DNA of 63,346 nucleotides, filler included, from Stramenopiles sp. TOSAG23-6 (lineage: Eukaryota): assembly GCA_900128565.1 (NCBI GenBank). It is 20 parts of 20 records of this genome, joined end to end, with 100 filler letters (N's around TTAATTAATTAA, not from the genome) between each part and the next. Parts side by side here need not be neighbours in the genome. Positions count along the whole stretch, not along the records: positions 31,842 to 34,911 come from LT637665.1; 19 more parts are not named here. One strand, given 5' to 3'. Below, piece by piece: positions 1 through 63,112 of this stretch. Position 1 is the stretch's first letter; each line of letters begins with the position of its first letter. Made by a program: the position numbers and the translations under genes. The notes beneath the pieces were generated by a model, which was given only the letters and a program-made list of their open reading frames with translations, had not been told where the DNA came from and made no database searches.

Positions 1-1143
1 CAAAACATCAAAGTGCGTCCTTATTTGTATATATATGTAATGATACATTCGGAAGCCTAGCAACAGTCACTGGCGGAAAGTCAGGTGGCATTGTTATTAT
101 TGCAGGAACAGGTTCAAACTGTTGCATCGTCGGAGCATCGGGAAAGACAACCAACTGTGGTGGTTGGGGTCATATGTTAGGTGACGAAGGTAGTGGATTT
201 TGGATTGCAAAAACTGCAGTAAAAGCCGTGTATAATAAACTAGACAATTTTGATTCGTCGGCACTAGACAATTTTCACCAGGGCAAGTGGTCAAAGCAGC
301 CTCTATCTGTATACCAATTGAGACAAATGGTAAATAACTATTTTAATATTTCAAATCCATTTGATATCATGTATGTTTTATTTTTTTTCAATTTCGAATT
401 TATTGTTTTTTTCGTACGAAATTTTGTACCTAACGAAAAAACATTTGAAATATTTTTCCAAAATACATTGCTCATTTATACACTTCTTTTGATAAAGCTA
501 AATTTGCAGCGTTTACACTAAAAGTTGCTGAAGCTGCACATGACGGAGATCTTTTATGTATAGACATTTTCAAAAGGGCAGGAAGTTATCTCGCAAGACA
601 CATTCTTGCTGTTATTCGTAGTGCTAATGCATGTACGTTTGATATGAATTTCTAATTTAATTTTTTTTTTCATACGAAATTTCGTACCTAACGATTTTTT
701 TAACTAACTTTTTTTTTCACAATACATGGAGCATTGATGGAAATGCAGATTTATTAAACATGATAGAAAGTTCCTCTACAAAAGTTGTTTGCACAGGTTC
801 AGTCTGGAAAAGTTGGAGTTTATTACAGTCTGGTTTTGAAGAAGAATTGAAACAAGGTGTTTTAGTACAGTCTGGTTTTGAAAAAAATAACGATAAAAAA
901 CAAAAAAAGATTACTACTGAAAGAAATAAATCAAACAGTCACGAAATTCAACAAGTGCATTTTAATGACTTAAATTTGCAGTTGGTTTCTCTGAAAGTGT
1001 CAAGTGCTGTAGGTGCTGCATATTTAGGTGTCGTTAATGATAATAAATTATCACAAAAAGAGTTTGGTGTTGAGAAGTTTGTTTTGAATGAAAACTATAA
1101 TGTCATGCGTTCATATAAAATCAAATTGTATAAAAAAAAATAA
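1..1143 (+). CDS. NAGK: N-acetylglucosamine kinase (BadF/BadG ATPase family), 5'-partial; exons <1-370, 469-632, 728-1143
   Basis: Motifs GIVIIAGTGSNC, CGGWGHMLGDEGSGFWIA and VVCTGSVWKSW. Removing introns 371-468 and 633-727 (both GT..AT) restores DIIAHLYTSFDKAKFAAF. Confidence 0.9.
371..468 (+). mobile_element. Representative copy of a dispersed introner-like intron family (more than 35 related copies in the window, both strands)
   Basis: Consensus GTAYGTTTT..T-rich..TTCGAATT..TTCGTACGAAATTTTGTACCTAAC..T-rich..TTGAAATATTTTTCCAAAATACAT, sense to the host gene in intronic copies. Confidence 0.75.
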
Positions 1144-3098: not shown

Positions 3099-3198
3099 NN
3101 NNNNNNNNNNNNNNNNNNNNNNNNNNNNNNNNNNNNNNNNNNTTAATTAATTAANNNNNNNNNNNNNNNNNNNNNNNNNNNNNNNNNNNNNNNNNNNN
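3099..3198. other. Contig-join linker (N-run, TTAATTAATTAA, N-run), repeated 19 times about every 3.2 kb
   Basis: The same ~100 nt linker with stops in all frames occurs at 3099, 6292, 9484, 12671, 15857, 19041, 22219, 25396, 28570, 31742, 34912, 38079, 41245, 44411, 47569, 50726, 53882, 57038 and 60194. Confidence 0.98.
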
Positions 3199-6102: not shown

Positions 6103-6478
6103 TTTTGATTTCGTGTTATAACGGCCGAAAAGCGCCGTAAAATAGAAGAAAAAAAAGAAGACATAAACGTAGGCAGACACAGGTGATTTCGCGGAGGAGA
6201 GTATACTTATTATGCTATAAATAATGCGATGAGGAAAGTTAAGAGGGAGAGTAATTTGAAGCAAGACTTGGCGGCTTCGAGAATACAGGCANNNNNNNNN
6301 NNNNNNNNNNNNNNNNNNNNNNNNNNNNNNNNNNNTTAATTAATTAANNNNNNNNNNNNNNNNNNNNNNNNNNNNNNNNNNNNNNNNNNNNAAAAAAAAA
6401 AACTTAAATTCGTTAGGTACAAAATTTCGTACGAAAAAAAAATCGATTTTTTTGGTAAAAAAAATAAATAAAACATAC

Positions 6479-8942
6479 ATCCTTTCGTCCTTATCAAGCT
6501 TTGCAATTAATGTATGAGATACTGTAAAATCGTTCTCAGACATCACATGAGGTTTCATTACATCAGTTTCATTTAATAATTGAATAGTGAGTGGCAGTTT
6601 GTAAATTTTCTTTTTTGGTTTTTTTGTTTTCTTTGGTTTTTTTGGTTTTTCGATCTTTTCCGTGTTTTCATCATCTTTTGTAGATGACTTTTCTTCATCA
6701 TCATCATCATTAGCATCTTTTGTAGATGACTTTTCTTCATCATCATCATCATTAGCATCTTTAGTAGATGACTTTTCTTCATCCTCATCATCATTAGCAT
6801 CTTTAGTAGATGACTTTTCTTCATCATCATTATCATCATCATCATTATCTTTAGTAGATGACTCTTCTTCATCAACAACATCTTCAACAGGTAAAATTTC
6901 TTCAAAGATTGCCTCTGCCTTTACAAGTCCTACAAGACCATTTTCATCAAGAAAAAAACTTAAATTAATTTTTGGCTCATCCAAATTTGAATATTTTTCA
7001 TCTTTCAATAAATCTTCAAGTCCAGATACGTCATATAGAGCAATGTCTTTGGCCGTACCTTCAGGAAGACTAAAGACTTTTGATGTATCGTAACGAAGCT
7101 TACATGTGAAATCAGAAGAATGTTTAAATTGTACTAATTTTCTAGAGACAAGTTTGTTGTTTCGTTTGAATAAAGTAGTACGTTTTGACCATATCTCAGG
7201 ATTAGGATTAGCCTCTGAAATATCTTCCATATCAGTGGGTAGTTTGTCTGCCAGACGAACGCCAACAGCAAAAGGTAAAATATCTTGCATGCCAACATGT
7301 TTTGTGAAAAAATATTTTTTTTTTTTTTCCGGTAAAAAATTTGTTAGGTACAAATTTTTTTGAAAAAAATAAATAAATTCGAAATTGAAAAAAATAAATA
7401 AATTCGAAATTGAAAAAAAAATAAATAAAACATACATGTCTCACACGAAATGCTTTAGATCGATTGGCTGCGTGAAACGCTGCACCCAAGGCCATCCCTT
7501 CATCTCCGTTGATATGCACAGCTAAATGCGTTGTATTTAAATGTTCTCTAAGCATTTCTTGAATTTTTGGAATGCGCACAGAACCACCAATGATTTCAAC
7601 CTCATCAACATCATTCACATCAATTCCTGCATCTTCTAAAACACGGTCTATAGGTTTCATAGCTTGAGCTAAATCTGCAGCAATTTTTTTTTCAAACTCT
7701 CTGCGAGTAATGACAAAACCACGTAAATCTTTATCTTTGTCCACACTCTCAATAAACACTGGGATTCTTTCATTTGCAGACAAAACTTCTTTGGTCTTTG
7801 TTGCTTGTTTTTGTATTTTAGCCCAAGATCTAGGTACGGTACGGACATCGTAATCAGGAAATTTTCCATTTTTGTTGACTACATTTGTATTAAACTCATC
7901 AGCAATCATGTTGGCAATGGACTGATCAAAATACGACCCACCAACNCCNTCTTCCCAGTGTTTTGATATTATCTCAAANTGAGANGAGACGACTTCTTTA
8001 CCTAATCGTTTTGTATTACGTGCTGTATAATAGGCAAGTGANGCTTGAACACTATTCGCACCCATATTGTAAAACAAAACACGATGNGTTTTGTTTTCGT
8101 ACGTACGATCAATCCCGTATTGTACGGCGGCTGCCGTGTTTTCATCAATTAACGAAATTACGTTTAATTTCGCGACTTTAGATGCATCGATTAAGGCACG
8201 CTTTTCCGTCTGTGTGAAAAAGGAAGGGACAGTGAGTACAACGTCATTAATTTTGGCATTCGCTTCTGCTTCGCCAATTTGTTTTGCATAGATCAAAATC
8301 ATGCCCATAATTTCTTCGACACTGTATTCTTCAGGCATNGAGACGTCATCAGAATGTTTTGATTCATAGAATGTATAGAGATATTAACGAGTTGTATATT
8401 GATAAGAAACAGGGAAATGGTCTCTGAAAAGTGTAAAAAGGAAAAAATATTTCACAGTTCTTTCTAATTTTTGCTTAGGTACAAAATGTCATACGACAAA
8501 AACAATATGGATTGGAATTAGGGTTAGGGTAACGTACGTCATACAAAGAGTTCTTGATTCGAAGAGAACCACGGGTATCATCTTCCACCAAAGTATGGTG
8601 AGACAAGAAAGTTTCAGATACTTTCCTAGTTATTGGATGAGTACTGTTACGTCCAAGCAAAGTGCGTGCAAATGTAAATGTTTGCAAAGGTTTACGCGTC
8701 ATCAAATTCTTTGCATCACCCGCAAACTGGCGAGCATTTTCATCATTAAATGCCATTGCAGTCTCTGTTTTACGCTTTGATGCTGTATTGGTAACAATTG
8801 TAAATGGATTGCCCGGTTTCACCAAAGCTACTTTAAAAAATAAAGAACCTAGATCAATACCAAGGACTAGAGCGGACGTCACGTGAAACGAAGATGCAAA
8901 CAGCAAAAGTGACATTACGAATGTTCTAATAGAGAAACGCAT
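6479..8942 (-). CDS. HYOU1: ER Hsp70-family chaperone HYOU1/GRP170, 3'-partial, copy 1
   Basis: Signal peptide, VLGIDLG, VVLTVPSFF, IIGGSVRIPKIQ, INGDEGMALGAAF and an acidic repeat region. Intron 7297-7435 (GT..AT) joins FRVRH|VGMQD. Confidence 0.9.
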
Positions 8943-9312
8943 GTTAAATGACTATTGTAGAGATATCTGAAAGACAAAAGTTTGATCGTTTGACGCGTCT
9001 ACTTCTGTTGGTGATACTAAATGAATGTAAGCTGCAGAGAATAAAATATAATGTTTGTAAGACTGAAATTACTTGCTTGCGGTTCTCGAGAGGAACTCAT
9101 CTGAGATGAACAACAAAACTGTTTGGTTTTGCGACGTGGCCAAAAAAAACAATATAAGCAGGTTTGTGCATTTAAAAAAAATCCAAAATAACGGCTACAA
9201 TCTAGATATGTCCACGGGTATCTAGCTAGCTAGGTATATCTTATCCGAATAACGGTTATCTACACCGTACAGTATCATTTCAAGAAAATAAATCTAAAAG
9301 ATTTCAAAAAGA

Positions 9313-9483
9313 ATGAAGAAGGTTATATCATTAAGCTTTGCTGCAGCAAGCGTACACGCATCAGGATCTGCAATAACTCCTCGTGAACTGGTTCTTGGAA
9401 ACCCCCAATGGAATGTCCTTACGAATACGTTTAATGAGAACTTTAACTCTAGCACGGAATACCGTACTCTAATGGCTCGTCTG
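9313..9483 (+). CDS. Hypothetical protein N-terminus, divergent from HYOU1 (repeated at 28399-28569)
   Basis: ATG-initiated open frame running into the linker, with a hydrophobic start. Confidence 0.4.
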
Positions 9484-11299: not shown

Positions 11300-11841
11300 A
11301 TGTTAATTCGCTCTCTCCAATCGATAGTTTCTCGCACTCGCCATGTTTCAGCGAAACGTGGGTTTGCATCCGCCTCTACTACGTCGACAATAACTCCGCC
11401 AACTTCAACGTCTCATGAAAAGATGAAGTCAGACAAACGCTATAAAAAGGTTACTGTTGTCCCAGATTCTTTGACTGAAAATGCTCCACAGGAAGCGTTT
11501 TCTATCAAGGGTCAATTTCTTGATGGACGACCTGCATATCTTGATGCTCAGGCAACAACTCCACTTGATCCACGTGTATTAGAAGTGATGATGCCTTACA
11601 TGGTTTCACAGTATGGAAATCCACACTCACGGACACATTCATACGGTTGGGAAGCTGAAGCTGCCGTTGAAAAAGCTCGTGGTCAAGTAGCTGATTTAAT
11701 TGGATGTACCTCAAATGAAATTGTATTTACTTCAGGGGCAACAGAATGTAATAATATGGCAATTAAAGGTGTCGCTCGATTTTACTCGAAGCGTAAAAAG
11801 CACATAGTAACTACTCAGACGGAACACAAGTGTACGTTTTC

Positions 11842-11872
<31 letters not shown>

Positions 11873-12606
11873 GTCCACAATTTTTTGCCAAACGAATTTT
11901 TTTTTTTCCAAAAAAATTTACCGAAAAAAAAAAAAAAAAATATTTTTTCACGGTATATGTGTCCTTGACTCTTGTCGAATCTTGGAGCAACAAGGATTTG
12001 ATATTACATATTTGCCTGTCAAAGAGAACGGTTTAGTCGATCTAGGTGAGCTCGAAGCAGCCATTCGACCAGGCGAGACTGTTCTCTGCTCTGTTATGGC
12101 AGTTAATAATGAAATTGGCGTTGTCCAACCCTTGAAGGAAATTGGAGCACTTTGCAGAAAAAATAAAGTTTTTTTTCATACTGATGCCGCTCAAATGGCG
12201 GGAAAAATGAAAATTGATGTTGATGAACTTAATATTGATTTAATGTCAATCAGTGGGCATAAGTTATATGGACCAAAAGGTGTTGGAGCTTTATATGTGT
12301 AGGTTTTTAGTACTCATTGTATACTATTTTGTTTTTGGTCATTTTTTTTTCAATTTTTTTTTCAATTTTTTTTAGATTTTTTTTTTTTGTAATTTTTTTC
12401 ATAGTAAATTTTGTACCTAACAAAAAATAACAAAAAAAAAATATTTTTCACAATATAGACGTCGACGACCAAGAGTGCGTTTGGAAGCCATAATCAATGG
12501 TGGTGGTCAAGAGCGAGGTCTTCGCAGTGGTACTTTGCCACATCCTTTGATTGCTGGTTTGGGTGAAGCAGCTGAAATTTCAAGTCAAGAAATGGAGAGA
12601 GATCAT
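11300..12606 (+). CDS. NFS1: Mitochondrial cysteine desulfurase, 3'-partial; introns 11832-11958 (GT..AT) and 12299-12458 (GT..AG)
   Basis: Transit-peptide-like start, [58 protein letters not shown]. Confidence 0.95.
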
Positions 12607-15956: not shown

Positions 15957-18025
15957 AACTTTTTACTCGTGCACAAAACAGATTTCTCAAATTACAAATT
16001 CATTCTTCTAGTGAATTATGTACTGTATGTTTTCAGGATCAATTTAAATTTATTTATATTTTTATAAAAATTTTGTACCTAACAAAAAAAATGAAAATAT
16101 TTTCCTACAATACATACTAATAAAGGCAATGAGAATACTATTTTAAAAGTGATTGACTGGGGCACAGAACCAGATGTAGATTCAATTCTTATTGAACAAA
16201 ACAATAGTGACATTCAACTTGTAAAATTATTACATGTTTGGCTTGAGGGTGAAGGTGCTACCATTAGAGACAAATGTAGAATTTTTTTGAGACCGACAAA
16301 AAATGAAGAAATCCCATTACACCGTATCACAAATTCATGTATGTTTTATTTTTTTTTTCAAATTTGAATTTGTTTTCTTATGAAATTTTGTACCTAACAA
16401 TTATTTTTTTCAAATATTTTTCCAAAATACATAAACATCCTGGGGGAATCAGACATGACCATTCTCAAATATATGGAAGGATTGAACCATTATGTTATGA
16501 AGTGTATGTTTTATTTTATTTTTATTTCAATGTTGAATTTATTTTTCGTACACAATTTTGTACCTAACAAATTTGTTTTTGAAATATTTTTCCAAAATAC
16601 AAAACTTGTATTGGTAACGGCAACAAATGTTTGGTATTTACAGTGCCTGAATTTGGATCAAATGTTAGTAGATTGTTGCGAGACGATTTGGGTCGTGCCG
16701 GTGTTGTTCGCAGTGAATCAGAATTAAGAATATTTTGCTGGACTTCAGGTTTTCGCTTCCCAAAGCAGACTTCTTTTGAGAAATCTGAGTTCTATAAGTT
16801 GAGCAGAAAAACAACAGCACTTGAACTGACAGAACGATTTCGCGAAAGAGGCATTATTCCGAATGATGTTCAGTTCCTATGCCAAGGTAGTGTTGGTGGT
16901 AAAACAAGGGTCATTGGCCATGCTAGGTCAGCCTTTTTGTATGTTTTCATTATGAATTTCAAATGTATTTTATTTTCATACAAAATGTTGTACCTAAATT
17001 ATTTTTTTTATTTTTGAAATATTTTTTCACAATATATAAAAGATGGTGGAAGTAGAAAAGGCTTCGACATATTGCAAAATCATACGTCGGAAGAAACTTT
17101 CGATGGGCTTTGTGGAACACTTGTGCATCCGCATTTTGTAAAACTCGGACGTATGGGTGTGTACAAAGTGGCACTGGAAAGAGCACCCAACAAAGAGGAG
17201 TTTCGTAAGAAGTATCAAAAACTTTTGGATGAGTATGGTTTGGAAGAAGCCGGCAAATTTGCTAATGTTGTGGCATATGGATCATGTGGTGAAATTCTTA
17301 GTCAAAAGCACGTCAAATGTCATTATGACAAGGAAGGCAGCCTTTCTAGTGAAATTATCTGCACGAATACCGTCCAAGGTATACGTCTATGGACGAACTA
17401 TAAATGTGATAAATGTGGAGATTGGCATCGATCTCGTGTTGTAGTGCAAAAGACAACAAATAATGGTGTAGTATCCGCAAAAATTGGGTGTACTGTTCAT
17501 TGTAAAAAAACGAAAACTATTAAGTCATTTGATCATGCATATATTGAAAGAGTTCCCTTTCATTTTATCAATGAAGATTGTTTCAAAGGTTGTCGATGTT
17601 TTATTTGCGCAAATGAACATTCAGATAAACCTGTCAATATTGAAAAACCTAAGAAAAGAAGTAAAGGTACTCTCAGCATTGGAACAATTATAGAACTTGC
17701 TGATGCGAAACGTCTGAAACATATTGAAGATGAACATGAAAAGCATCCAAACAGGCAAAAAAAAACCCTCAAGCAAGAAAATCCTATAAGAGAAGATCTT
17801 ACACGTTTCGTAAAATGCACAAAAAATGGAGAACCAAATCTTACCCTAATCCAGTCTAGTTCAAAAGGTGATTTGATGGTGCGAATTGGTGGTAAACATG
17901 GTAAAACTATTGCAATCAGCGGAGTGAAAAATCTTGAAATGGTTCCGTTTTCGTGTCCTCGAGGTGAATCTTGTCCGTGTACATTTTGTGAAAGACGTCG
18001 TAACAACTTAAAAGAAGAAGACTGA
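15957..18025 (+). CDS. Multi-exon hypothetical Cys/His-rich protein, 5'-partial
   Basis: Four family introns (16025-16115, 16339-~16430, 16504-~16602, 16939-17037) connect the ORF segments. CxxC and CxC clusters in the last exon. Confidence 0.6.
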
Positions 18026-23261: not shown

Positions 23262-24476
23262 CTATGAATCGCATTTTGAGTGACTGTGTGAATGGCATTT
23301 TGAGTGACTATGTGAATGACTATGTGCATGACTATATGACTGGTTTCCTGAAATCTGAGTTCCCGGCGAGTTATCATCAGAACCTGTCGATGCTTGTAGA
23401 ATGTGTTGGACACCTTGTTCAAATTTTTCAATCTCAATCGTCAAGTTTCTACAACCAATTTGACTCTTCCATCCAAATTACGATCTAATTTTTTGAAGTA
23501 GCTGTTTTTGATTAGCAGTTGTTGACACCCTAACCTTAAGTGAACCAACTAATGTATTATTAGTGTGCATCCAAAAATGTGCAGCACGAACTTCAAACAC
23601 CGACGGCTCTGAACGCAACAATTTTTTAATCTCGCATTGAACTTTTTTACGAACTTCAATNGGTGTTGCTTGTAATAGTTGTAAGCCAGTTATTTTGATA
23701 AGAGGTATAGCAGAAAGGAATATAAGGACAGATATAAATATGGCACAAATTGGATCGCTAATGGTCCAATTATAAAGTTTTATCAATATTGCTGATAGGA
23801 TAACACCAACACTGCCCAGTGTATCAGCTAGAACGTGTAAAAACACACCATGCATATTACTATTTTGTTTAGCATGAGGACAGTTGCCACTTGAATGACT
23901 GTGGCTGTGGTGCTCATGGAAGAAAACCAAACCAACAAGGTTGACTAATAAACCTCCTACTGCAACAGGTAATAAATGTTGAGTATGCACATCTGGTGGA
24001 GAAAAAAGACGATAGAAACCTTCCAATAGCACAGAAACAGCAATTAATAATAAAAATACTGCATTGACGAATCCTGATATAACTTCAATCCGGCCATATC
24101 CATATGTAAACTCTTTGTTCGTTTTAAATGATGCCACAAATGCCGCAATAAGACTAATTAAAAGAGCAGTACAGTCAAATAGCATATGCCCTGAATCAGA
24201 TATTAAACCCAGCGAATTTGACCAATAACCTACTATAAACTCCACAAACGTGAAGGAAAGGTTTATTAGGATAAACATGAAAATCTTAAATGAGTTTCTA
24301 TCTGTAGAAATGTGCCTTAAAAACTTCGACAGGACTAGTTTCACTTTCCCAGCGCCAGCTTGATGAGGTTCCACTAACACACCAAGTTCTTCATCTGTTG
24401 TGGATACTTTTCGCCAGCCAGGACCAAAATTATCAGGAGGTAAAATTTTATTGACGAAGTTCTGAAAGCTTTCCAT
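23262..24476 (-). CDS. CDF zinc transporter (ZnT5/ZnT7-like) with an in-frame TAA at 23478-23480
   Basis: SLGLISDSGHMLFD, FTYGYGRIE, His-rich loop, NMHGVFLHVLADTLGSVGVI. The frame continues past the TAA into ...LTIEIEK and a His-rich tail. Confidence 0.88.
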
Positions 24477-24842
24477 GATTCAGTGATTCGTATTAAAGAA
24501 AGTACACTGCAACTGTAATTATACTATTCCGTTCGATATACGAGGTCAGGTAGTTCGATGTAGGTAGCTAATATACGAAGAAAATCAGATCTCAGATCAG
24601 ATCTGTTAGTACGAACCGTACTAGCTAGGACCTAACCGCGAACCTGCGAGGATCAAATCAAAATCAACGCTAGAATATTGAATGCCTTTCTTTCATGTTG
24701 CATCCATTGTTCATACTGAATATTATTATTAACTAGTGTATGTATCACAGTTCCTAAATACCACCACCATTATTGTATAATAAAAAATCTCAAATAATAA
24801 GCAAAATAGTAAAAATTTTATTACCGTTGTTTTCATATTTAA

Positions 24843-25395: not shown

Positions 25396-25582
25396 NNNNN
25401 NNNNNNNNNNNNNNNNNNNNNNNNNNNNNNNNNNNNNNNTTAATTAATTAANNNNNNNNNNNNNNNNNNNNNNNNNNNNNNNNNNNNNNNNNNNNAAAAA
25501 AAAAAACTTAAATTCGTTAGGTACAAAATTTCGTACGAAAAAAAAATCGATTTTTTTGGTAAAAAAAATAAATAAAACATAC

Positions 25583-28028
25583 ATCCTTTCGTCCTTATCA
25601 AGCTTTGCAATTAATGTATGAGATACTGTAAAATCGTTCTCAGACATCACATGAGGTTTCATTACATCAGTTTCATTTAATAATTGAATAGTGAGTGGCA
25701 GTTTGTAAATTTTCTTTTTTGGTTTTTTTGTTTTCTTTGGTTTTTTTGGTTTTTCGATCTTTTCCGTGTTTTCATCATCTTTTGTAGATGACTTTTCTTC
25801 ATCATCATCATCATTAGCATCTTTTGTAGATGACTTTTCTTCATCATCATCATCATTAGCATCTTTAGTAGATGACTTTTCTTCATCCTCATCATCATTA
25901 GCATCTTTAGTAGATGACTTTTCTTCATCATCATTATCATCATCATCATTATCTTTAGTAGATGACTCTTCTTCATCAACAACATCTTCAACAGGTAAAA
26001 TTTCTTCAAAGATTGCCTCTGCCTTTACAAGTCCTACAAGACCATTTTCATCAAGAAAAAAACTTAAATTAATTTTTGGCTCATCCAAATTTGAATATTT
26101 TTCATCTTTCAATAAATCTTCAAGTCCAGATACGTCATATAGAGCAATGTCTTTGGCCGTACCTTCAGGAAGACTAAAGACTTTTGATGTATCGTAACGA
26201 AGCTTACATGTGAAATCAGAAGAATGTTTAAATTGTACTAATTTTCTAGAGACAAGTTTGTTGTTTCGTTTGAATAAAGTAGTACGTTTTGACCATATCT
26301 CAGGATTAGGATTAGCCTCTGAAATATCTTCCATATCAGTAGGAAGCTTGTCTGCCAGACGAACGCCAACAGCAAAAGGTAAAATATCTTGCATGCCGAC
26401 ATGTTTTGTGAAAAAATATTTTTGTTTTTGTACAATTTGTTAGGTACAAAATTTTTTGAAAAAAATAAATAAATTCGAAATTGAAAAAAAATTTTGTTAA
26501 AAAAAAATAAATAAAAAATACATGTCTCACACGAAATGCTTTAGATCGATTGGCTGCGTGAAACGCTGCACCCAAGGCCATCCCTTCATCTCCGTTGATA
26601 TGCACAGCTAAATGCGTTGTATTTAAATGTTCTCTAAGCATTTCTTGAATTTTTGGAATGCGCACAGAACCACCAATGATTTCAACCTCATCAACATCAT
26701 TCACATCAATTCCTGCATCTTCTAAAACACGGTCTATAGGTTTCATAGCTTGAGCTAAATCTGCAGCAATTTTTTTTTCAAACTCTCTGCGAGTAATGAC
26801 AAAACCACGTAAATCTTTATCTTTGTCCACACTCTCAATAAACACTGGGATTCTTTCATTTGCAGACAAAACTTCTTTGGTCTTTGTTGCTTGTTTTTGT
26901 ATTTTAGCCCAAGATCTAGGTACGGTACGGACATCGTAATCAGGAAATTTTCCATTTTTGTTGACTACATTTGTATTAAACTCATCAGCAATCATGTTGG
27001 CAATGGACTGATCAAAATACGACCCACCAACNCCNTCTTCCCAGTGTTTTGATATTATCTCAAANTGAGANGAGACGACTTCTTTACCTAATCGTTTTGT
27101 ATTACGTGCTGTATAATAGGCAAGTGANGCTTGAACACTATTCGCACCCATATTGTAAAACAAAACACGATGNGTTTTGTTTTCGTACGTACGATCAATC
27201 CCGTATTGTACGGCGGCTGCCGTGTTTTCATCAATTAACGAAATTACGTTTAATTTCGCGACTTTAGATGCATCGATTAAGGCACGCTTTTCCGTCTGTG
27301 TGAAAAAGGAAGGGACAGTGAGTACAACGTCATTAATTTTGGCATTCGCTTCTGCTTCGCCAATTTGTTTTGCATAGATCAAAATCATGCCCATAATTTC
27401 TTCGACACTGTATTCTTCAGGCATNGAGACGTCATCAGAATGTTTTGATTCATAGAATGTATAGAGATATTAACGAGTTGTATATTGATAAGAAACAGGG
27501 AAATGGTCTCTGAAAAGTGTAAAAAGGAAAAAATATTTCACAGTTCTTTCTAATTTTTGCTTAGGTACAAAATGTCATACGACAAAAACAATATGGATTG
27601 GAATTAGGGTTAGGGTAACGTACGTCATACAAAGAGTTCTTGATTCGAAGAGAACCACGGGTATCATCTTCCACCAAAGTATGGTGAGACAAGAAAGTTT
27701 CAGATACTTTCCTAGTTATTGGATGAGTACTGTTACGTCCAAGCAAAGTGCGTGCAAATGTAAATGTTTGCAAAGGTTTACGCGTCATCAAATTCTTTGC
27801 ATCACCCGCAAACTGGCGAGCATTTTCATCATTAAATGCCATTGCAGTCTCTGTTTTACGCTTTGATGCTGTATTGGTAACAATTGTAAATGGATTGCCC
27901 GGTTTCACCAAAGCTACTTTAAAAAATAAAGAACCTAGATCAATACCAAGGACTAGAGCGGACGTCACGTGAAACGAAGATGCAAACAGCAAAAGTGACA
28001 TTACGAATGTTCTAATAGAGAAACGCAT
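25583..28028 (-). CDS. HYOU1: HYOU1/GRP170 copy 2 (alternative assembly path or haplotype of the 6392-9483 contig)
   Basis: Same sequence and same N positions as copy 1, except around intron 26401-26521. Confidence 0.88.
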
Positions 28029-28669
28029 GTTAAATGACTATTGTAGAGATATCTGAAAGACAAAAGTTTGATCGTTTGACGCGTCTACTTCTGTTGGTGA
28101 TACTAAATGAATGTAAGCTGCAGAGAATAAAATATAATGTTTGTAAGACTGAAATTACTTGCTTGCGGTTCTCGAGAGGAACTCATCTGAGATGAACAAC
28201 AAAACTGTTTGGTTTTGCGACGTGGCCAAAAAAAACAATATAAGCAGGTTTGTGCATTTAAAAAAAATCCAAAATAACGGCTACAATCTAGATATGTCCA
28301 CGGGTATCTAGCTAGCTAGGTATATCTTATCCGAATAACGGTTATCTACACCGTACAGTATCATTTCAAGAAAATAAATCTAAAAGATTTCAAAAAGAAT
28401 GAAGAAGGTTATATCATTAAGCTTTGCTGCAGCAAGCGTACACGCATCAGGATCTGCAATAACTCCTCGTGAACTGGTTCTTGGAAACCCCCAATGGAAT
28501 GTCCTTACGAATACGTTTAATGAGAACTTTAACTCTAGCACGGAATACCGTACTCTAATGGCTCGTCTGNNNNNNNNNNNNNNNNNNNNNNNNNNNNNNN
28601 NNNNNNNNNNNNNTTAATTAATTAANNNNNNNNNNNNNNNNNNNNNNNNNNNNNNNNNNNNNNNNNNNN

Positions 28670-31573: not shown

Positions 31574-31885
31574 AAAAATTTTTTTTTTTTTAAGTAAAAA
31601 AATTCCGAAAAAAAAAAAAAAAAAAAAAAAATATATATATAATTTTGAAAACGTACATATACGATAATTGTACAATAAATTCTTTTGAATTGTTTTCACT
31701 TTCAATAGTATGTATACGANTCACAGGGATTCGATCAACAANNNNNNNNNNNNNNNNNNNNNNNNNNNNNNNNNNNNNNNNNNNNTTAATTAATTAANNN
31801 NNNNNNNNNNNNNNNNNNNNNNNNNNNNNNNNNNNNNNNNNAATTCTAGTTTTTTTTTTTTTTGAAATATTTTTCCAAAATACAT

Positions 31886-32368
31886 GAATAATTTCTTCAC
31901 TGCCCAACGATTAGTACTCGTAACGTTTCTACGTGTCATAATTTTATTTGCATTTTTTGCGACGACTACGTTTCCTTTAAAAAAACCAATGAACACTTTT
32001 GCTCTTGCTGAAACTTTTATTGTTGTGTTATTGGGATTGTCGAACGGATGTATGTTTTCAAAATTTCAATTTCGAATTTACTTTTCGTACGAAATTTTGT
32101 ACCTAACAAATTTTAATTTTTTTTTGATTTTTTTTACTAATTTCGAATTTATTTGTTTTGTAGAAAGTTTTGTACCTAACGATTTTTTTTACCAAAAAAA
32201 AAAAAAATATTGTTTCACAATACATGGTTATGTACGATAACAATGCTCAAAGCACCTTTGATTGTACCAGTCACTTCGGCTTCCCAAGCAGGTTTGTGTA
32301 TGACTTTTTTTGTGCTCCTAGGTCTGACTTTTGGTATATTTGTGTCAAGTGCAATTCCTGATTTGTAA
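31886..32368 (+). CDS. Equilibrative nucleoside transporter C-terminus; intron 32050-32225 (GT..AT)
   Basis: Spliced LLGLSNGWLCTITMLKAP...AGLCMTFFVLLGLTFG matches ENT TM10-11. Confidence 0.75.
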
Positions 32369-32572
32369 AAAACGGTTATATTATAAAGAATAGTATATTA
32401 ATAATTAAATTGTAGTCTCGTCTCGTCTATTTTTCTCAATTTAACAGATGAATATTCAGAATTCAGAAAAAAAAAAATCGAAATCGTCTCGTCGGGTCAG
32501 CTCGCTTGCGCGTTGGCCAAGTTTCTTAAGCAGTCACATATCTCATGAAAAGTTCTGTACTAGTGTGTTACA

Positions 32573-34853
32573 ATGGCAACATCTGTACAAAAATATAGTC
32601 AAATTGAACTACCACCACGTCTTACTGACGTACTCCGGTTAGTTCTAACAAATAGAGGAGTTCCCGTTGATATCAGTGGTGAATTTGATGCACGGCTTCG
32701 GCTATTTTCTAAGAGACAGGCAATGCCATCTACTGATTCTTTCACGTGGTCTTTTTTCTCACGTATGCGTTCTTCTCTTGCCCCAGTTCAAACACGTACC
32801 GAACAACAAAAGATTCGCGAAAAATTTGCAATGTTTGTCAAACTATCTGGACAAGCAGTTGGTGATGATGGAGAAAGTTTTGGAATAGCAAGTGTTGCAG
32901 CAAAGACAATACTACGAATTGCAGTGCGTTCCATTACAAATACCTTCACACGTTTTCAAATAAAAGCTCTAATATCAAAGGAGTTTGATATTATTTATGA
33001 TTATAATAAGATAGAAAATGCATTAAAGGTCGGGAGAGAACTGTATGAATGGCTTCAATCAAGTTCGTCAACTCTACGAAAGGATATATTCCGAGATAAT
33101 ACACAATTTGGACAAGATATTGAAATTGCCACCGCGAGTGATAGTATTAGTTTACCCATACCTCGACATCTTTTAAGAACAACAAACACTGCGACATCTA
33201 AAAGTTCATTTGATAAAATTAGTTCTATTGGAGTTGGCACTCAGAAAATTCGAAATTCCGTAGGTAATTCCAGTACAAAAAACAAAAAAAACATTTCGAA
33301 TTTGCCAAGTTCTACCCCTCTGTCTGGTTCTAATCAAAATATCAAAGCAGACGCTCAGTGGCTAGTATGTGTTTGTGAGCAACACCTTGCTATAGCAGAA
33401 TCATCTGGGAATTTTGATGGGACAAATATTTGGACTGCACAGACATTAGCTGAGCAAGTTATTTCTCTTTTTCGTTCTGATTCTGATGATAGTCAATTAC
33501 AAGCTGATCTTTTTGGCCTTTTCGGCGTTGCAGGATTTGATACTATCGCCGAACTATTTCAAAGAAAAGACGAAATTGTTGACATTAACTTAAATGAATT
33601 ATTCATATATTCTACACAAAATGTACGAAATTCCGTACCTATTTCCGTATCTAAAGGTCCACATATTGGATTACGTGTCACTTCAAAAGCAGAGAAAAAT
33701 GCTGAGAAACAAGAAAGAAAACGTTCTCGTCGTTTTGGTAGGCACATGAATGCACAATCCAAAAACAATCAAGTTCATATGAATAGTGGGAGTAGTCTTC
33801 TTCAACATCTTGGTTTCTCTGAAGAATATTTAGATGAACAGCACGCGTTAGGTTTGAAAACTTTATCTAAATCTCGTACGTTTTCATTTCAAGTTCGAAT
33901 GTAGTTTTCTTTTTTTATAGTAAATTTTGTACCTAACAAACTTTAATTTTTTTTTTAAATATTTTTTCTAAAATAGGTGCAGATCAAGGTGTCAGTTTAC
34001 GTAAAAGAATGGGACTGGGTAAAGCTTTTATTGGTAAGCATAACACTGGACTACCACCGGGCACTATACGACAGCAATTCAAAGGATATGAAGAAGTTCG
34101 TGTGCGTTTTTAGTATGACTATTTTTGTCTTTTTTGTTTTCATACGAAATGTTATACCTAACGTTTTTTATTTTTTTTTGAAATATTTTTCGCAGTTCAT
34201 GTCCCTGCTTTGCAAGCACGTAAAAATGAACAGGAACGATCTCCTGTTCTAATAAATTCCTTACCTGAATGGGCACAACTAGCATTCAAAAATACAAAAT
34301 CCTTGAATAAGCTACAATCTGCGTTATTTAACGTTGCTTTTGAATCTAGTCGCAACATGCTTGTATGTGCTCCCACTGGTGCTGGTAAAACAAATGTTGC
34401 AATGCTAACAATATTGCGAGAAATTTCCCTCCATATTCAAAATTCCAAAATTGAAAAAAATGATTTTAAGATTGTATATGTTGCTCCGATGAAAGCTTTG
34501 GCTCAGGAAGTAGTCACAAAATTTTCTCAGCGTTTGAAATCCCTTGGTATCAAAGTTGCTGAGTTGACCGGGGATATGCAAATGACAAAAAAAGAAATTT
34601 CTGAAACGCAAATAATGTATGTTTTATTTTTGTTTCAATTTCGAATTTATTTTTTTATAAAAAATTTGTACCTAACGAATTTTTTTTTGAAATATTTTTC
34701 CAAAATGCATTGTAACTACACCTGAAAAATGGGATGTCATTACACGAAAAGCAGGGGATGGCTCTTTAGTGGAAAAATTACGACTCCTAATTATCGACGA
34801 GGTGCACTTACTAGCTAGTGACAGAGGGGCTGTTATTGAAGTTTTAGTGGCAC
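32573..34853 (+). CDS. ASCC3: Ski2-like helicase ASCC3/Slh1, 3'-partial; introns 33876-33976, ~34102-34200, 34617-34710
   Basis: [64 protein letters not shown]. Confidence 0.82.
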
Positions 34854-35093
34854 GTTTGTTTTATTTTTTTCAAATTCGAATTTTTTTTCGTACGAAATTT
34901 TGTACCTAACANNNNNNNNNNNNNNNNNNNNNNNNNNNNNNNNNNNNNNNNNNNNTTAATTAATTAANNNNNNNNNNNNNNNNNNNNNNNNNNNNNNNNN
35001 NNNNNNNNNNNAAAAAAAAATCTAAAAAAATTTGTTAGGTACGAAATTTCGTACGAAAAAAAAAATTAAATTAGAAATTCATATAAAACATAC

Positions 35094-35623
35094 ACTGACT
35101 TGAAGCTTACTGTGTAACTTATCACTTAAGGATTTTAGAGAATTCATCTGTTTATCAGTTAGTTTACCTTCCATCATTTCTCTTGAATGTGTTTTAGAAA
35201 AATATTTCAAAATTTACTATAAAAAAAAAATTGTTAGGTACAAAATTTTTATAAAAAAAAAAATTCGATGTTTTTTTTTTTTACCGAAAAAAAAAAAAAA
35301 AATAAAAACATACATGTTGCTCACGAGATATTAAACCTTCCACTTCTTTATATCGACTTCCAACATCATTTACAATATTTCCAATTTTTACAAGAACTTC
35401 ACCACGATGCCCATCCATTTTTGAATGTATTTCATCAGTATACCGTTGTAAATTTGAATGAAATTTTGCATCCATTGAGGACACATCATCGACAATTACT
35501 TCTCGTGCACGTGCATGCTCATCAAATGAATTTTGGAAAAATATTTCAAAAAAAAAATTTTAAAATTTGTTAGGTACGAAATTTCGTACGAAAAAAAAAA
35601 TTCGATTTTTTTTTTTTTTTACC

Positions 35624-35654
<31 letters not shown>

Positions 35655-36659
35655 CATACATGAACCACGGATGTGTTCTTTTAATTGGTCATGTTGACGT
35701 TGATGGTCACTTAAAACTTTTTCATGATTTCCAAAAGATGTATGTAAACCTCGTATCTTTGGCTCCAATTGTTCTTGGTATGTATTTTGGAAAAATATTT
35801 CAAAATTTTTTTACCGAAAAAAAAAAAAATGTTAGGTACAAAATTTTCTACCAAAAAACGAAAAAAAAAAAATTATTCAAAAAAAAAAAAAAAAAACATA
35901 CATTGGCGTTGTATTCGTGCATGATCCTCAAATTGACCTTGAATGTGGTCTACGAGGGTATCATGAGCAGTTTTGTGTTCCTGTACTGTTTATGAAATAT
36001 TTTGTTACAATTTGTTACAATTTGTTACAATTTGTTACAATTTGTAGAAATACTCTTTTTCAAAAAAAAAAAAAAAAAAAATCTTAGGTACAAAATTTCG
36101 TATGAAAAAAAAAACGTACATTTAATGTGGTCTGAAAGCCATAGATACTTTCATCAGCCTTCCGATGAGCGCCTTCCATTTTTAAATCTATCTCACCCCA
36201 ATTTTGATCATACTTTTGAAACCTAGAATCAACTCTTCCAACAAATTCTTCATGATTTAGTTTATGCCTTTCTGTTGCTTCTTCCAAAGCTTCAACTGCC
36301 TTCATTGCATTTTGAGATTCAGTATCTATTCTTGAGTTATACTTCCGCTCGTGCTCGAGTATCGTTTTATCAACCAAATGCTGATGATCTTCAAATATTC
36401 TTGCATGTTGAGCTGCAATTTTAGTTTCAGACATTCCCATTTTACGTTCAAGATTTTCAAGACCTTTTGTAATTTCTCTTGTGACGCGATCGAAACTGTC
36501 TTCGATAATGACACGGTTTTTTTCTTCTTCAATGAGTCGTAATTCGATCTCCCTTGTTTTATCTTCAACCAATTTAAATTTTGCATCTAAAATATCAGAT
36601 GCAGTTGTAAAGGCACCACCTGCAGTCAATTCACCACTACTCACTGGTGAAATATTCAT
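35094..36659 (-). CDS. Coiled-coil hypothetical protein with 5 exons, 3'-partial
   Basis: Introns 35981-36119 (AG) and 35780-35901, 35526-35659, 35187-35313 (all AT) give one continuous frame. Confidence 0.7.
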
Positions 36660-37017
36660 GATGTATTTTAATGTACAATACAAAGATTATTAATCTGAAT
36701 GAATAGATTTGTTATTGTATTTTATTAGTAAAGGGAAGATACGAAAAAAAAAAAAAAAAAAAAAAACCGACGACCGTTACTTTTTCTTGAGCTTGGAAAA
36801 AAAGCCGATTTTTCGTGTTTTTCGAGATAAATTAAATTGATTGGTGCCCAACAACAACAACAAATCTCTCAAATCGAAAAATGTTGACATTGTTGTTGTT
36901 GGGAATTTTCTTTTCCGATTTTAAAACAACGAGTTTTTCTTTTTCTACTTGAATGGATGACACAATTATAAAATCATTGGTTTTGATTTTTTTTTTTAAT
37001 CACTAGGAATATTGTAC

Positions 37018-37966: not shown

Positions 37967-38244
37967 GTGTGTTGTATTTTTTTTTTCAATTTTTTTTTTT
38001 TTTGATGTTTTTTTCATACGAAATTTTGTACCTAACAATTTTTTTTTTTTTGGTAAATTTTTAAATATTTTTCCAAAANNNNNNNNNNNNNNNNNNNNNN
38101 NNNNNNNNNNNNNNNNNNNNNNTTAATTAATTAANNNNNNNNNNNNNNNNNNNNNNNNNNNNNNNNNNNNNNNNNNNNTTCATACGAAATTTTGTACCTA
38201 ACAAATTTTAGTTTTTTTTTTTGAAATATTTTTTCAAAATACAT

Positions 38245-40625
38245 TTACAAAAAGAAATGATTGAGCAAAAACAAAAACTTACAATGGAACAAGATCGACG
38301 TCTAAAACTACTTGGTCGAAAAGCTGATGAAGAAAATGTGAGGGCCAATTTATATTGTAAATTGCGAGAAGAAGTTGAGGAAGAGTCAAAATGTATCGAA
38401 TTGATCGTTCACAACCAACGAAAAAAAATGGAGGAACAATCCTCAAAAATTGTCTCCCTTGAGATGAATGTCACACAACTTGAACATAATAAAACGAAAG
38501 AATTACATATTTGTGAAGAAAACTCCAAGACTTTAGAATCGTCTAAAAAAATGGTAAATCAGCAACATAGGGTGATTCAGAAAATGTTGTTCTCAAATCG
38601 CGAGCATAGCCAAAAGGAAAAAGCTCTTCAAAAAGAATTATTGGAAGAATTAGCTATTCAGAAAGATCTCAAGAGTGTTCGCGCTACGAACGAAAATATG
38701 GAACAGTCTTTGCAGAATATGGAGATGAAAATCTCTGAAGAAAATAGAGAAATTGAGACATTGAATAAAGCTTTATCACACTCAGAGAATTGTAATGTTG
38801 AAATGAAATCACAATCGAGCGAGATAATGAAAGAAATATCTCTCCTTCAATCTGAATTAAATGGATTAAAAGAAACGGAAATATCTCAAATTTTAATTTC
38901 ATCTGAAGCTGCATTGAAAACACAACAAAGTCAACAAAAAGCAGCAAAGAAAATATTTTTTCTTGAAAAGGAAATAGAAGTAGCTTCAATGCGTCATACA
39001 CACGAAATCAATGAATTTGAGATACGTTGTACAGATAAGGATAACAAATATGTAAAGGAACTGGAAATATTGAAGAGACAGTTAAATAATGCAAAACTTC
39101 GAAGTGGCTCCGAAAAAAAATTACGAGAAAAATTGAAAATCACTACTAAATCTTTACAACAAGAGACAGAAGCGTTGCAGTCGATGGAGCATTTTGTAAA
39201 TGAATCCAAAGAAATTGAATCTGTAATGCAAACAAATCTACAAAAAAAGATCCGTCGTCGAACGCGAGAGTTAAAATCTTGTCAATTTGATCTAATGAAT
39301 GCATATCGCTTGGAAGAGCAAAGTCTTGAATGTCACCGTGAATTAAATGCGGAAAATATTGCCAATAAAAACAAGTATCAAGAAGAATTATCTATGATAC
39401 GAAGTGACTTTGCACAGTCAAACGCTGAATGGCTAGAAAAAGAAAATGAATTTCAATTACGTAACAACGTCTACACAGAAGAGGTGACTTCTCTCACCCA
39501 TGAATTATATCACGAAATTACTACGTTTGAATCACAAAAGAAAAGAATTGTTGCGCAACATGAAAACGAGTTCATTCATATGGGTAAAACTTTTGAAGAT
39601 TCAATGAAGGAAAAAACAGAAACATACAAAGAGGAAATTAATTTTGAAAAAGAACAATTGCATAAGCAACAAATGTATTGGAGTGAGAACTTAAGTTCGC
39701 TCGAGTCAATCTATGAAAAAGAATTAAGTCAATATGATGAAGAAAAATCGAACCAAATTGAAAAATTAGTTCAATCGATGGAAGAAAATAAAATAGGTGT
39801 AATACAAGAGCAATCTGCTATGCAGTGTACACTGGCCAACTTGAAAAAAGCATTTGATTTATCTAAGAAACAGTTGGAAGATGTAGAAATTTTGGCAACA
39901 GAAAGATTATGCGCGATAGAAGATTTTGTGGAAAATAAAGAACATAATGAAATACAAAACGATGAGTGTAATATAAAGATAAAAACCTTGGAAGAAGAAA
40001 TAAAAAACGAAAAGAATAATTACGAATTTGAATTAAGTAATGCCTCTGTAGAATTTGATAAAAAAATAGCAGAAACTATTAAAGAGTATAACAGTAGAGA
40101 AGAATATTTGAAAGAAAGTAATATGAGTAATATTGTTACAATGGAACTCGATAGAAAAAATATATACGAGTTAGAGTTAAGTAATAGAGATCGATTTTAT
40201 GAGGAAGAACTGGAGTTACTGAAAGAAACTCATTGTTCCGAATTAGAAAAGCAACGCGAATTACGTACGTTTTCATCATGAATTTTAAATTTATTTTTGT
40301 TTGGTACGAAATCTTGTACTTTACAACTTTTTTTTTTTTTTGAGTTTTATTTTTTTTCCATACATCTTCATCATGAATTTTAATTTTTTTCGTAGTAAAT
40401 TTTGTACCTAATGATTTTCAAAATTATTTTTTTTCACAATACATGTGCATCACATATATCTGAAACGATGCAAATGATGGAAAAAAAACAACTCCAAAAG
40501 TTGAAATATCAACAAAAAAAGTTTGATGATGACTTTTCGTCGGAATTAAAGTGGCATCTAGATGAAGTTGATAAAAAATATACAATAGATATTTGTGACT
40601 TAAATACGAAACATAATAATATAAT
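38245..40625 (+). CDS. Long coiled-coil protein, internal exons (38245-40264, 40445-40625)
   Basis: E/K/Q-rich 686 aa ORF flanked by family introns. Confidence 0.7.
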
Positions 40626-40726
40626 GTATGTTTTATTTTTTTTCAAATTTGATTTTTGTTTCGTACGAAATGTTGTACCTAANANTTTTTTTTAGATTTT
40701 TTTTGAAATATTTTTTCAAAATACAT

Positions 40727-41126
40727 GAATATAGCAATGCAATTAAGAAAATGTTGTAATCATCCATTTTTAGTGAATGGTGCTGAAGATGCAGAAAAAT
40801 CACTTTTAAAAGATAAATTTGGAAAAAAAATTAATCGTGAATTAAACACAGATGAATTATGTGCGGCTTGTACGTTTTTTTTTTTTTTTTTTTTTTACAA
40901 AAAAATCGATTTTATTTTTCATACGAAATTTTGTACCTAACGATTTTTTTTTTTTTGAAACATATTTTTGAAAAATACATCTGGAAAACTTGTTTTAGTT
41001 GATAAATTATTACAACGTTTAAAACAACAAAATCATCGAGTTTTGATATTTTCACAAATGGTACGAATGTTGAATATTTTGGAAGATTATTTAAATGGAA
41101 GAGAATATTCCTTTGAACGAATTGAT
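40727..41126 (+). CDS. CHD-type SNF2 chromatin remodeler, helicase-C fragment; intron 40870-40980 (GT..AT)
   Basis: [49 protein letters not shown]. Confidence 0.88.
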
Positions 41127-41191: not shown

Positions 41192-41351
41192 TTTTTTTTT
41201 TTTAAAAAAATTTTTTACCCAAAAAAAAAAAAAAAATTTAAAAANNNNNNNNNNNNNNNNNNNNNNNNNNNNNNNNNNNNNNNNNNNNTTAATTAATTAA
41301 NNNNNNNNNNNNNNNNNNNNNNNNNNNNNNNNNNNNNNNNNNNNTTTTTTT

Positions 41352-62426: not shown

Positions 62427-63112
62427 CTAAACATTATTTCCCTTTTCTATAACAAAAGTTTTTATTTTAGATAAAAACTTTCTTGTAATATATCGTAACT
62501 GAAATGAACCCTTTAAATGAACATTATTTGACATTTGATTTTCTCTGAGAAGAAATCGTTTAATATTTTGATTTGAAATAATATCGCGTATTTCCATTTT
62601 TATATTTTGGAAATATTCCTTCGCTAAATGTATTGTAAAAAAATATGCGACAAAAAAAAATTGTTAGGTAGAGAATTTGTTTTATGAAAAAGCAAAACTG
62701 AAATTAAAAAAATTGAAATTTCAAATGAAAATATACATGAAAAAATATTTCAAAAATTTAAACTTTTTGTTAGGTACAAAATTTCGTAGTAAAAATGAAA
62801 ATATACATGATGAGGTACATTTCTATCTGATAATACTTTTAATTTTGTTGTTGTCCAATTAAATTGAAATTTTTTCCATCTTTTATAAAATTGATTTGCC
62901 AAGGAAATCAATCTAGTATCATTCTTCAACGTACCTAGAGCAAAATTTTGTATATTTTGATGATACTTTGCTTTTGATGAGGCAATTGCAAACATAACCA
63001 TAATCATGTATTTTGGAAAAATATTTCAAAAAAAAAAATTCATTGGGTACAAAATTTCGTATGAAAAATAAATTCGAATTTGAAAAAAATAAAACATACA
63101 TATTCTGCCGTA
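62427..63112 (-). CDS. Hypothetical protein 3' part: micro-exon 63100-63112, exons 62807-63005 and 62427-62627
   Basis: Removing family introns gives a continuous frame to a TAG; no recognisable motif. Confidence 0.55.

Follow-up and report, generated by a model that had tools for sequence, protein, structure and literature searches.

Most of the putative introns in the window, which is the whole 63,346-nucleotide stretch of DNA from Stramenopiles sp. TOSAG23-6 (GCA_900128565.1) that was analyzed, end in AT rather than AG, and they are copies of one introner-like family. The element is about 95 bases long, and its copies are 63–87% alike in pairs. On balance, we regard these segments as spliceosomal introns that arose from a single family of introners, which are short, non-autonomous mobile elements, and protein conservation suggests that the segments are removed from the mRNA. 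The window consists of 20 unrelated contigs of about 3.1 kb (3,098 down to 3,053 bases, in size-descending order), which are joined by 19 six-frame-stop linkers (N44-TTAATTAATTAA-N44, at 3099–3198, 6292–6391, ... 60194–60293). It is therefore not one locus, and neighbors across linkers carry no meaning.

An earlier note on this DNA had claimed that removal of segments of the form GTAYGT..YAT restores conserved reading frames, and this was confirmed at 34617–34710 and at about 28 other places. In our tally, 28 copies ended in AT (23 with both ends visible and five with only the 3′ end), in addition to one duplicate contig, and six copies ended in AG. At least two others were ambiguous (16504–16602 and 8537–~8376). 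These numbers agree with the previous manual count of about 25 AT versus 8 AG, and the two types were mixed within the helicase, ABCC transporter, and NFS1 genes, as had been described. The canonical AG 3′ end of U2-type GT-AG introns was thus replaced by AT in approximately 28 copies, versus 6 with AG. The U2-type GTAYGT donors and the CTAAC-type branch box named in the note were also present, with GTATGT, GTACGT, GTGCGT, and GTAAGT as GTRNGT-type donors and the branch box located upstream of the 3′ end. The description of GT-AT as the majority class held as a count, since most frame-restoring introns in the window end in AT, but not as independent evidence. Because about 25 cases are copies of one element, the AT majority reflects the spread of one family in repeat-broken contigs.

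Among the 14 AT-ending copies with open flanking frames, 13 joined in phase exactly at the CAT end of the family consensus, compared with a chance expectation of 1/3. The miss was the copy at 16339–16432. Intron length was a multiple of three in 4 of 22 copies; the lengths of the rest were not, and reading through the introns breaks the frames.

Junctions required by conserved proteins

Junctions were examined with tblastn homologues (P0001, P0008, P0081, P0204, and others) or Pfam profile coordinates. Nine junctions, six of the AT type and three of the AG type, could be fixed in this way, and at all of them the ends of the element are the splice junctions that the protein demands. These mRNA junctions are directly supported by protein conservation.

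The copy at 34617–34710 reads ..GAAACGCAAATAAT/GTATGT...CCAAAATGCAT/TGTAACTACACC, where a slash marks a splice border, and in a longer view ..CAAATAAT/GTATGTTTTA..TTGTACCTAAC..CCAAAATGCAT/TGTAACTACACC. With this segment excised, the helicase protein was collinear and gap-free with its closest homologue, the EukProt entry P0081 (74% identity over the exon before 34617), and also with P0084 and P0086. The conserved frame needs the AT end, as had been proposed. The tblastn pieces that flank the segment meet or overlap at P0081 q365–367. AG is absent from the branch box to the exon, and the next AG lies about 38 nt into the conserved exon, so that splicing to it would remove a conserved motif. The gene had been labeled Brr2, a label that was not upheld: its named matches were closer to the ASCC3/Slh1 type, and most of them were ASCC3.

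Further copies lie upstream in the same gene. The junction of 34102–34200, EEVR/VPALQ, has the same length as ELVK-VPAVK in P0081; an end at the nearby AG was rejected, as it would require a TT donor. The AG-ending copy at 33876–33976 gives SKS-R-ADQG versus QRR-DQG in P0081, with one residue extra.

In the Grp170/HYOU1-like gene, removal of 7297–7435 gave FRVRH/VGMQD exactly as claimed, compared with FRVRKVGMQD in P0001 and FKVRHVGMTD in P0008. A duplicate of this intron was present at ~26401–26541, with the donor GTATTT and the end ..AACAT/ retained. The two contigs concerned, 3 (6392–9483) and 9 (25496–28569), were 99.1% identical end to end, and they may be alleles, a recent duplication, or a double assembly. 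Their shared intron differs in indels and in the donor (GTATGT vs GTATTT), both contigs retain ..CAAAACAT/ (..AACAT/), and the exon after the shared introner carries a synonymous GTT/GTC change. Many single Ns occur in the contigs of the window, including both of these. The first intron of the Grp170-like gene (8376–8537, minus strand) belongs to the family and contains an internal ..CTTTTCAG. Splicing at this internal site meets a stop in the homologous frame; to stay in frame, the intron would have to extend some 50 nt more, to ..TCTCTAT/, which is an AT end with the AG skipped. An N is located at 8339.

Two NFS1 introns were also fixed. Removal of 11832–11958 gave TEHK-C-VLDSCR, which is continuous in P0204 (K159/C160/V161) and in P0208, so that the proposed junction was exact, and the Pfam Aminotran_5 coordinates were contiguous within 1 position. 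At the AG-ending copy 12299–12458, P0204 q272 (..GALYV) followed by 7 residues (21 nt) fits exactly to q280 at 12481.

In the ABCC gene, the ABC_membrane profile was contiguous across three introns. Positions 88 (P) and 89 (M) adjoin over the gap at 48653–48821, and positions 178 and 179 over 47949–48165, so both of these earlier predictions stood. Positions 137/138/139 adjoin at the AG-ending copy 48290–48506. The intron at 50316–50506 joined in frame as predicted; the restored QTA-W-ILNAT is presumably a conserved motif, and the same assumption applies to DDPT-S-ALD at 49949–50075.

In the SNF2-type helicase fragment, 40870–40980 likewise joined in frame, with weak Pfam matches to SNF2-rel_dom and Helicase_C, one on each side. 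The restored SGKLVL-type motif (AA/SGKLVL) is presumably conserved, and the motif restored across 40626–40726 is presumed so as well. For 371–468 (DI/IAHLY) in the sugar-kinase-like gene, the in-frame join was upheld, and Pfam coordinates gave nothing decisive.

Anatomy and distribution of the introner-like family

A hidden Markov model built from 9 copies gave 49 nhmmer matches at E ≤ 1e-3 in about 61 kb on both strands. The copies are only 63–87% alike, and the family is therefore not very young. An alignment of 16 copies showed a shared start GTAYGTTTT, a palindromic box that runs into the branch site (..TTTCGTACGAAATTTTGTACCTAAC, also given as ..CGTACGAAATTTTGTACCTAAC), a T-run, and a conserved tail (..TTTTGAAATATTTTTCCAAAATACAT, also given as ..GAAATATTTTTCCAAAATACAT) with the consensus end CAT. 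The branch motif TACCTAAC sits 33–55 nt from the intron end. The branch module is tandemly duplicated in 32050–32225, 48506–48290, and 47949–48165.

Wherever the frames on both sides of a copy are open, the copy stands in sense orientation with its own 5′ site, branch box, and tail, which directly supports a repeat family that lies in the sense direction only. The AG-ending introns belong to the same family and end at the same last alignment column with G for T (..ATAG, ..ACAG, or ..TCAG vs ..ACAT or ..ATAT). Copies were spread over the helicase, NFS1, ABCC, Grp170, SNF2, and sugar-kinase-like genes and several unknown genes. The family thus has the anatomy of an introner.

In 14 of 23 copies, both borders carry the same AT or CAT, and the third border base matches in 8 of 11 copies whose flanks were read by eye, including the off-consensus pairs TAT/TAT and AAT/AAT. 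In the younger copies, this repeat might represent a target-site duplication, or it could belong to a short inverted terminal repeat, ATGTAT..ATACAT. No transposase was found among 10 long open reading frames (ORFs) scanned.

Introners are known from Micromonas, Aureococcus, and many aquatic protists and fungi, and the sections of the survey used here describe a curation that accepts GT, GC, GA, or AT donors and AG or AC acceptors only (Gozashti et al., PNAS 2025, PMC12130899). Like the introners described there, the present family comprises many similar short copies that stand as introns in unrelated genes, in sense orientation and with splice signals, and its short inverted ends and short direct border repeat hint at a DNA transposon. 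Unlike them, about 28 of 36 copies here have the acceptor AT, and this AT in place of AG or AC is what may be new relative to described introners. A full-text literature search, with supplements outside its scope, gave no match for GT-AT together with introners. Literature searches for GT-AT with non-canonical introns and protists, and for single amplified genomes with introns, also returned nothing matching.

The region 31842–34911 was compared with contigs, not raw reads, of one seawater DNA run (X3) and three metatranscriptomes. An X3 DNA contig spans 32220–33938, over the 5′ border at 33876, with 18 letters different. X3 contig sequence also spans 34185–34367, over the ..TTCAT/GTCCC border at 34200, with the sole listed difference at 34260. 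The AT end is therefore directly seen at the DNA level, and an artefact at the last intron base is unlikely. In runs X8 and X9, the flanks of other copies part from this locus exactly at 34710.

The introner dominated the matches to this stretch in both the DNA and the RNA libraries. The summed contig depth in X3 was 7,856–77,843 over introner parts versus approximately 6.7 over exons, and in the three metatranscriptomes it was 154–20,783 over introner parts and near zero over exons. Summed contig depths are a rough indicator and not copy numbers, and we take them as a sign of hundreds to thousands of introner copies. The three RNA runs held 6–8% of the sampled words from the stretch, and these small shares are the repeat itself because the coverage sits on the introner parts. 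The sole exon cover in these runs was one 151-nt contig at 32646–32796, and the listed joints were links between repeats. Either unspliced introner RNA or carried-over DNA is common in such libraries and can lend an appearance of "expression" to any stretch with a copy. A metagenome scan with a 16-base branch-box motif gave 0 true copies among the 118 matches listed; these were chance matches and have no bearing on absence.

Contig ends in the window fall very often inside the introner repeat, and the repeat probably cut these contigs. Therefore, the density observed here (about 40 introns in 61 kb) may exceed the genome average. The G+C content of the stretch is about 33%, the genetic code appears standard, and a tRNA scan of the stretch found none.

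Table 1. Introner copies and related introns in the window. A slash marks a splice border.
Feature	Position	Strand	Gene and details
Introner copy	371–468	+	BadF/BcrA-type sugar-kinase-like gene; CAT/GTATGT..ACAT/
Introner copy	633–727	+	CAT/GTACGT..ACAT/; in frame
Introner copy	7297–7435	−	Grp170/HYOU1-like HSP70; GTATGT..ACAT, 139 nt, phase 0
Diverged family member	11832–11958	+	NFS1; GTACGT..ATAT, 127 nt
AG-ending family copy	12299–12458	+	NFS1, next intron after 11832–11958; GTAGGT..ATAG
Introner copy	16339–16432	+	GT..AT removal leaves long frames one base out
Introner copy	32050–32225	+	GTATGT..ACAT; branch-box module duplicated; flanks join in phase
AG-ending family copy	33876–33976	+	Same helicase gene as 34617–34710; GTACGT..ATAG; family alignment
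Introner copy	34102–34200	+	GTGCGT..TCAT, 99 nt, phase 0; AG 5 nt before end
Introner copy	34617–34710	+	ASCC3-like helicase; GTATGT..GCAT, 94 nt, phase 2; best nhmmer match of the family
Introner copy	35187–35313	−	CAT/GTATGT..ACAT/; TATAG 18 nt past branch box would give immediate stop
Introner copy	35526–35659	−	CAT/GTATGT..TCAT/; in frame
Introner copy	35780–35901	−	AAT/GTATGT..ACAT/; in frame
Introner copy	40626–40726	+	AAT/GTATGT..ACAT; nhmmer match; in frame
Introner copy	40870–40980	+	SNF2-type helicase fragment; GTACGT..ACAT; in frame
Family-related intron	47949–48165	−	ABCC; GTAAGT..GCAT, 217 nt; branch module in tandem repeats
AG-ending copy	48290–48506	−	ABCC; GTACGT..ATAG; duplicated branch module
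Introner copy	48653–48821	−	ABCC; AAT/GTATGT..AAAT/, phase 2
Introner copy	48962–49078	−	TAT/GTATGT..ATAT/; in frame; Pfam ABC_membrane starts at predicted exon start
AG-ending family copy	49949–50075	−	ABCC; GTACAG..ACAG; in frame, gives DDPT-S-ALD
Family-related intron	50316–50506	−	ABCC; GTACGT..ACAT; branch box ATACTAAC
Near-consensus introner copy	63006–63099	−	TAT/GTATGT..ACAT/; nhmmer E=6e-15

Splice borders and rival explanations

The exon base before GT was T in all 23 AT-type copies. Because this T is constant, cuts at GT..AT and at TG..CA yield identical mRNA, and the position of the borders is uncertain by one to three bases. The last two exon bases were AT in 14 of the 23 AT-type copies and in none of the four AG-type copies. 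A cut at GT..AT is preferred because this register makes GTAYGT a complete donor of the major type, because nine of the 23 copies cannot be AT..AC, and because the AG-ending copies share the last alignment column.

In the proposed mechanism, each copy would bring its own 5′ site GTAYGTTTT, branch box, T-run, and tail in one orientation. The major spliceosome would most likely cut at the G of GTAYGT and after the last T of the tail, with YAU and not YAG as the 3′ site. The AG-ending copies would be the same element with G instead of T as the last base, and the element would have spread by transposition. More tentatively, we propose that the usual 3′ site of the major spliceosome in this uncultured marine protist is YAU rather than YAG, with upstream AGs passed over and with U rather than G at exon position −1, so that both "AG/" borders would have become "AU/". 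Such a rule may have opened the way for one introner to invade in thousands of copies, or the invasion may have driven the rule. A spliceosome with relaxed specificity for the terminal nucleotide, as the earlier note suggested, is a plausible hypothesis.

Several observations weigh against removal at GT..AT by the major spliceosome. We know of no major-spliceosome substrate with U at the last intron position. The copy at 16339–16432 does not join in frame; its true end may be 2 nt downstream (..AA), or else the contig carries an indel. In another copy in this unknown gene, 16504–16602, the end at the consensus position is ..ATACAA, and the in-frame alternative lies 4 nt earlier at ..CCAAAAT. 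For the copy at 34102, an alternative of equal length at 34099–34197 (equivalent to GT..CA from 34096) would give EEVH. The T at exon position −1 also occurs in three of the four AG-type copies, and it may be a general 5′-site preference rather than a target-site duplication. The absence of AG between the branch box and the exon, which had been reported for most of these introns, held in 15 of 18 AT-type introns, but at 34102, 48165, and 35313 an AG intervenes before the CAT end and would have to be skipped. If these three copies are functional, the 3′ site is therefore not simply "first AG, otherwise anything", and the bypassed AG fits a different rule better than a merely relaxed one. Furthermore, no exon-exon joint was present in the three metatranscriptomes, in which the exons of this contig were nearly uncovered, so that they are uninformative on splicing. 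The RNA contigs of runs X6, X8, and X9 carried the 5′ or 3′ part of the introner on many different flanks, and they are either unspliced RNA or carried-over DNA.

The borders could be set differently if the introners were cut as AT..AC, with the 5′ cut two bases ahead of GTATGT, the 3′ cut just before the final AT, and an A-C pairing that the major spliceosome tolerates. For 14 of the 23 AT-type copies, most of them younger ones with GTATGT, this reading, which we consider improbable, yields identical mRNA, and to that extent it resembles U2-type AT-AC introns. It is impossible in the other nine, where the exon ends in TT, GT, or CT (TT at 40870–40980). In addition, GTAYGT would fall at +3 to +8, which is off the pairing register of U1 and U6, and the AG-ending copies have the same end column. 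U2-type AT-AC introns and variable-ended U12 introns demonstrate that the last base need not be G, and they are rare single introns per genome.

Slightly less probable again is excision guided by pairing of the intron ends, as in euglenids and hemistasiid diplonemids or in the introns of Amoebophrya and Fritillaria derived from miniature inverted-repeat transposable elements (MITEs). A 6-bp helix AUGUAU/AUACAU (or AUGCAU) closes the minimum-energy fold in three of seven copies, and upstream AGs are skipped in three copies. However, the folds are weak (z −1.96 to +1.33), the terminal helix is missing in four of the seven, and every copy has kept a strong U2-type donor and a branch box, which sets the family apart from the published cases as far as the cited portions describe them. 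Structure-guided excision of the euglenid kind was thus not supported by the weak folds. Nonconventional introns lack conserved borders and show stable end pairing, whereas the borders here are conserved and the helix does not exceed 6 bp. Many non-GT-AG introns have reportedly been predicted in single-cell genomes of marine diplonemids.

According to the portions used here, over half of the introns of Amoebophrya are non-GT-AG, with no dinucleotide signature and with 8–20-nt inverted repeats that form hairpins, and U1 parts are apparently missing (Farhat et al. 2021, PMC7789003). Like that system, as far as described there, the present one is a marine protist with repeated MITE-like introns and with direct repeats that make the borders ambiguous. 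Unlike it, the introns here have a single signature GTAYGT..YAT, a conserved branch box, and a terminal complement of only 4–6 bp. For hemistasiid diplonemids and euglenids, the portions used describe G/C-rich paired ends, no GT, and a rare branch motif (Thakur et al. 2025, PMC12621601). As described there, they resemble the present case in the abundance of non-GT-AG introns in marine flagellates, a suggested MITE origin, and ends that can pair, and they differ from it in that the introns here are AT-rich, fold weakly, and carry donor and branch signals resembling those of yeast.

It is very unlikely that the segments are U12-type introns of the minor spliceosome with a flexible 3′ dinucleotide. 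Their branch box fits the U12 branch consensus about as well as that of U2, and Sheth et al., in 2006, reportedly placed GT-AT among the rare U12 termini. U12 introns have their own donor box and a branch box approximately 10–25 nt from the 3′ end. Here, the donor is GTAYGT, and the distance from the branch A to the 3′ end was 33–55 nt in 20 of 21 measured copies, far over the typical U12 distance; the remaining copy measured 20 nt using a second CTAAC. Neither the donor nor the branch spacing therefore fits. An Rfam scan of the 63-kb stretch gave no match, and no U11, U12, U4atac, or U6atac was found in the 63 kb searched.

To the same low degree, the segments might stay in the RNA, either as insertions in dead genes or as germline-only DNA that is lost from a somatic nucleus. 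The introner-plus-flank contigs in the RNA libraries would agree with this. In contrast, NFS1, the helicase, ABCC, and Grp170 have intact exons, with 65–88% identity to homologues in tblastn pieces, and the insertions, up to about nine in one 3-kb gene piece, stand strictly in sense orientation with splice signals. The code looks standard, and the environmental DNA contig has the introner in place. Germline-only DNA of the ciliate kind was rejected on code, orientation, and splice signals. Least probable of all, to the point of being nearly negligible, is an assembly or sequencing artefact at the repeat ends with G as the true base. The contigs are short, broken at the repeat, and marked by many single Ns, but the last intron bases adjoin unique exon sequence, the independent DNA run confirms 34185–34367, the two near-identical contigs agree, and AG-ending copies came through the same assembly.

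Lineage, other genes, and implications for splicing

The best protein matches were 49% for the Grp170 piece, 74% for the helicase piece, and 81% for the NFS1 piece, and no identical transcript-derived proteins were found for these three pieces. In a FastTree tree of the helicase, the nearest relative, P0081, grouped with an oomycete and marine sequences (support 97), apart from the single kinetoplastid included. This placement weakly points to what is possibly a stramenopile or another protist of the stramenopile-alveolate-rhizarian (SAR) type.

Some genes in the window were free of the introner element. These included a complete 2-Cys peroxiredoxin ORF (52492–53226, minus strand; AhpC-TSA, 1-cysPrx_C) and a cation-efflux gene in a single ORF (23481–24479). 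Two long coiled-coil-looking ORFs with no Pfam family were located at 36087–36686 and 35012–36119 (minus strand) and at 38212–40278 (plus strand), and the one on the minus strand was split by at least four introner copies. A 758-aa open frame at 54049–56322 had an extreme A-over-T skew (0.48). The contig at 41345–44410 had a higher G+C content (42% in one 2-kb window) and held a Cys-rich ORF, which we take to be PLAC8-like in appearance.

The AG at the end of introns is among the most constant signals of eukaryotic gene expression, and the spliceosome reads the last intron G through its pairing with the first intron G. If RNA data bear them out, the AT ends described here would amount to an unusual splicing rule. 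In that case, this organism would be the first lineage to combine U2-type donors and branch sites with an altered last intron nucleotide, and its essential-gene introns, mostly ending in U, would be a natural experiment on the site choice of the second catalytic step. Gene finders restricted to GT-AG would break nearly all gene models of this organism. It would also follow that a mobile element that generates introns can spread without AG at its end.

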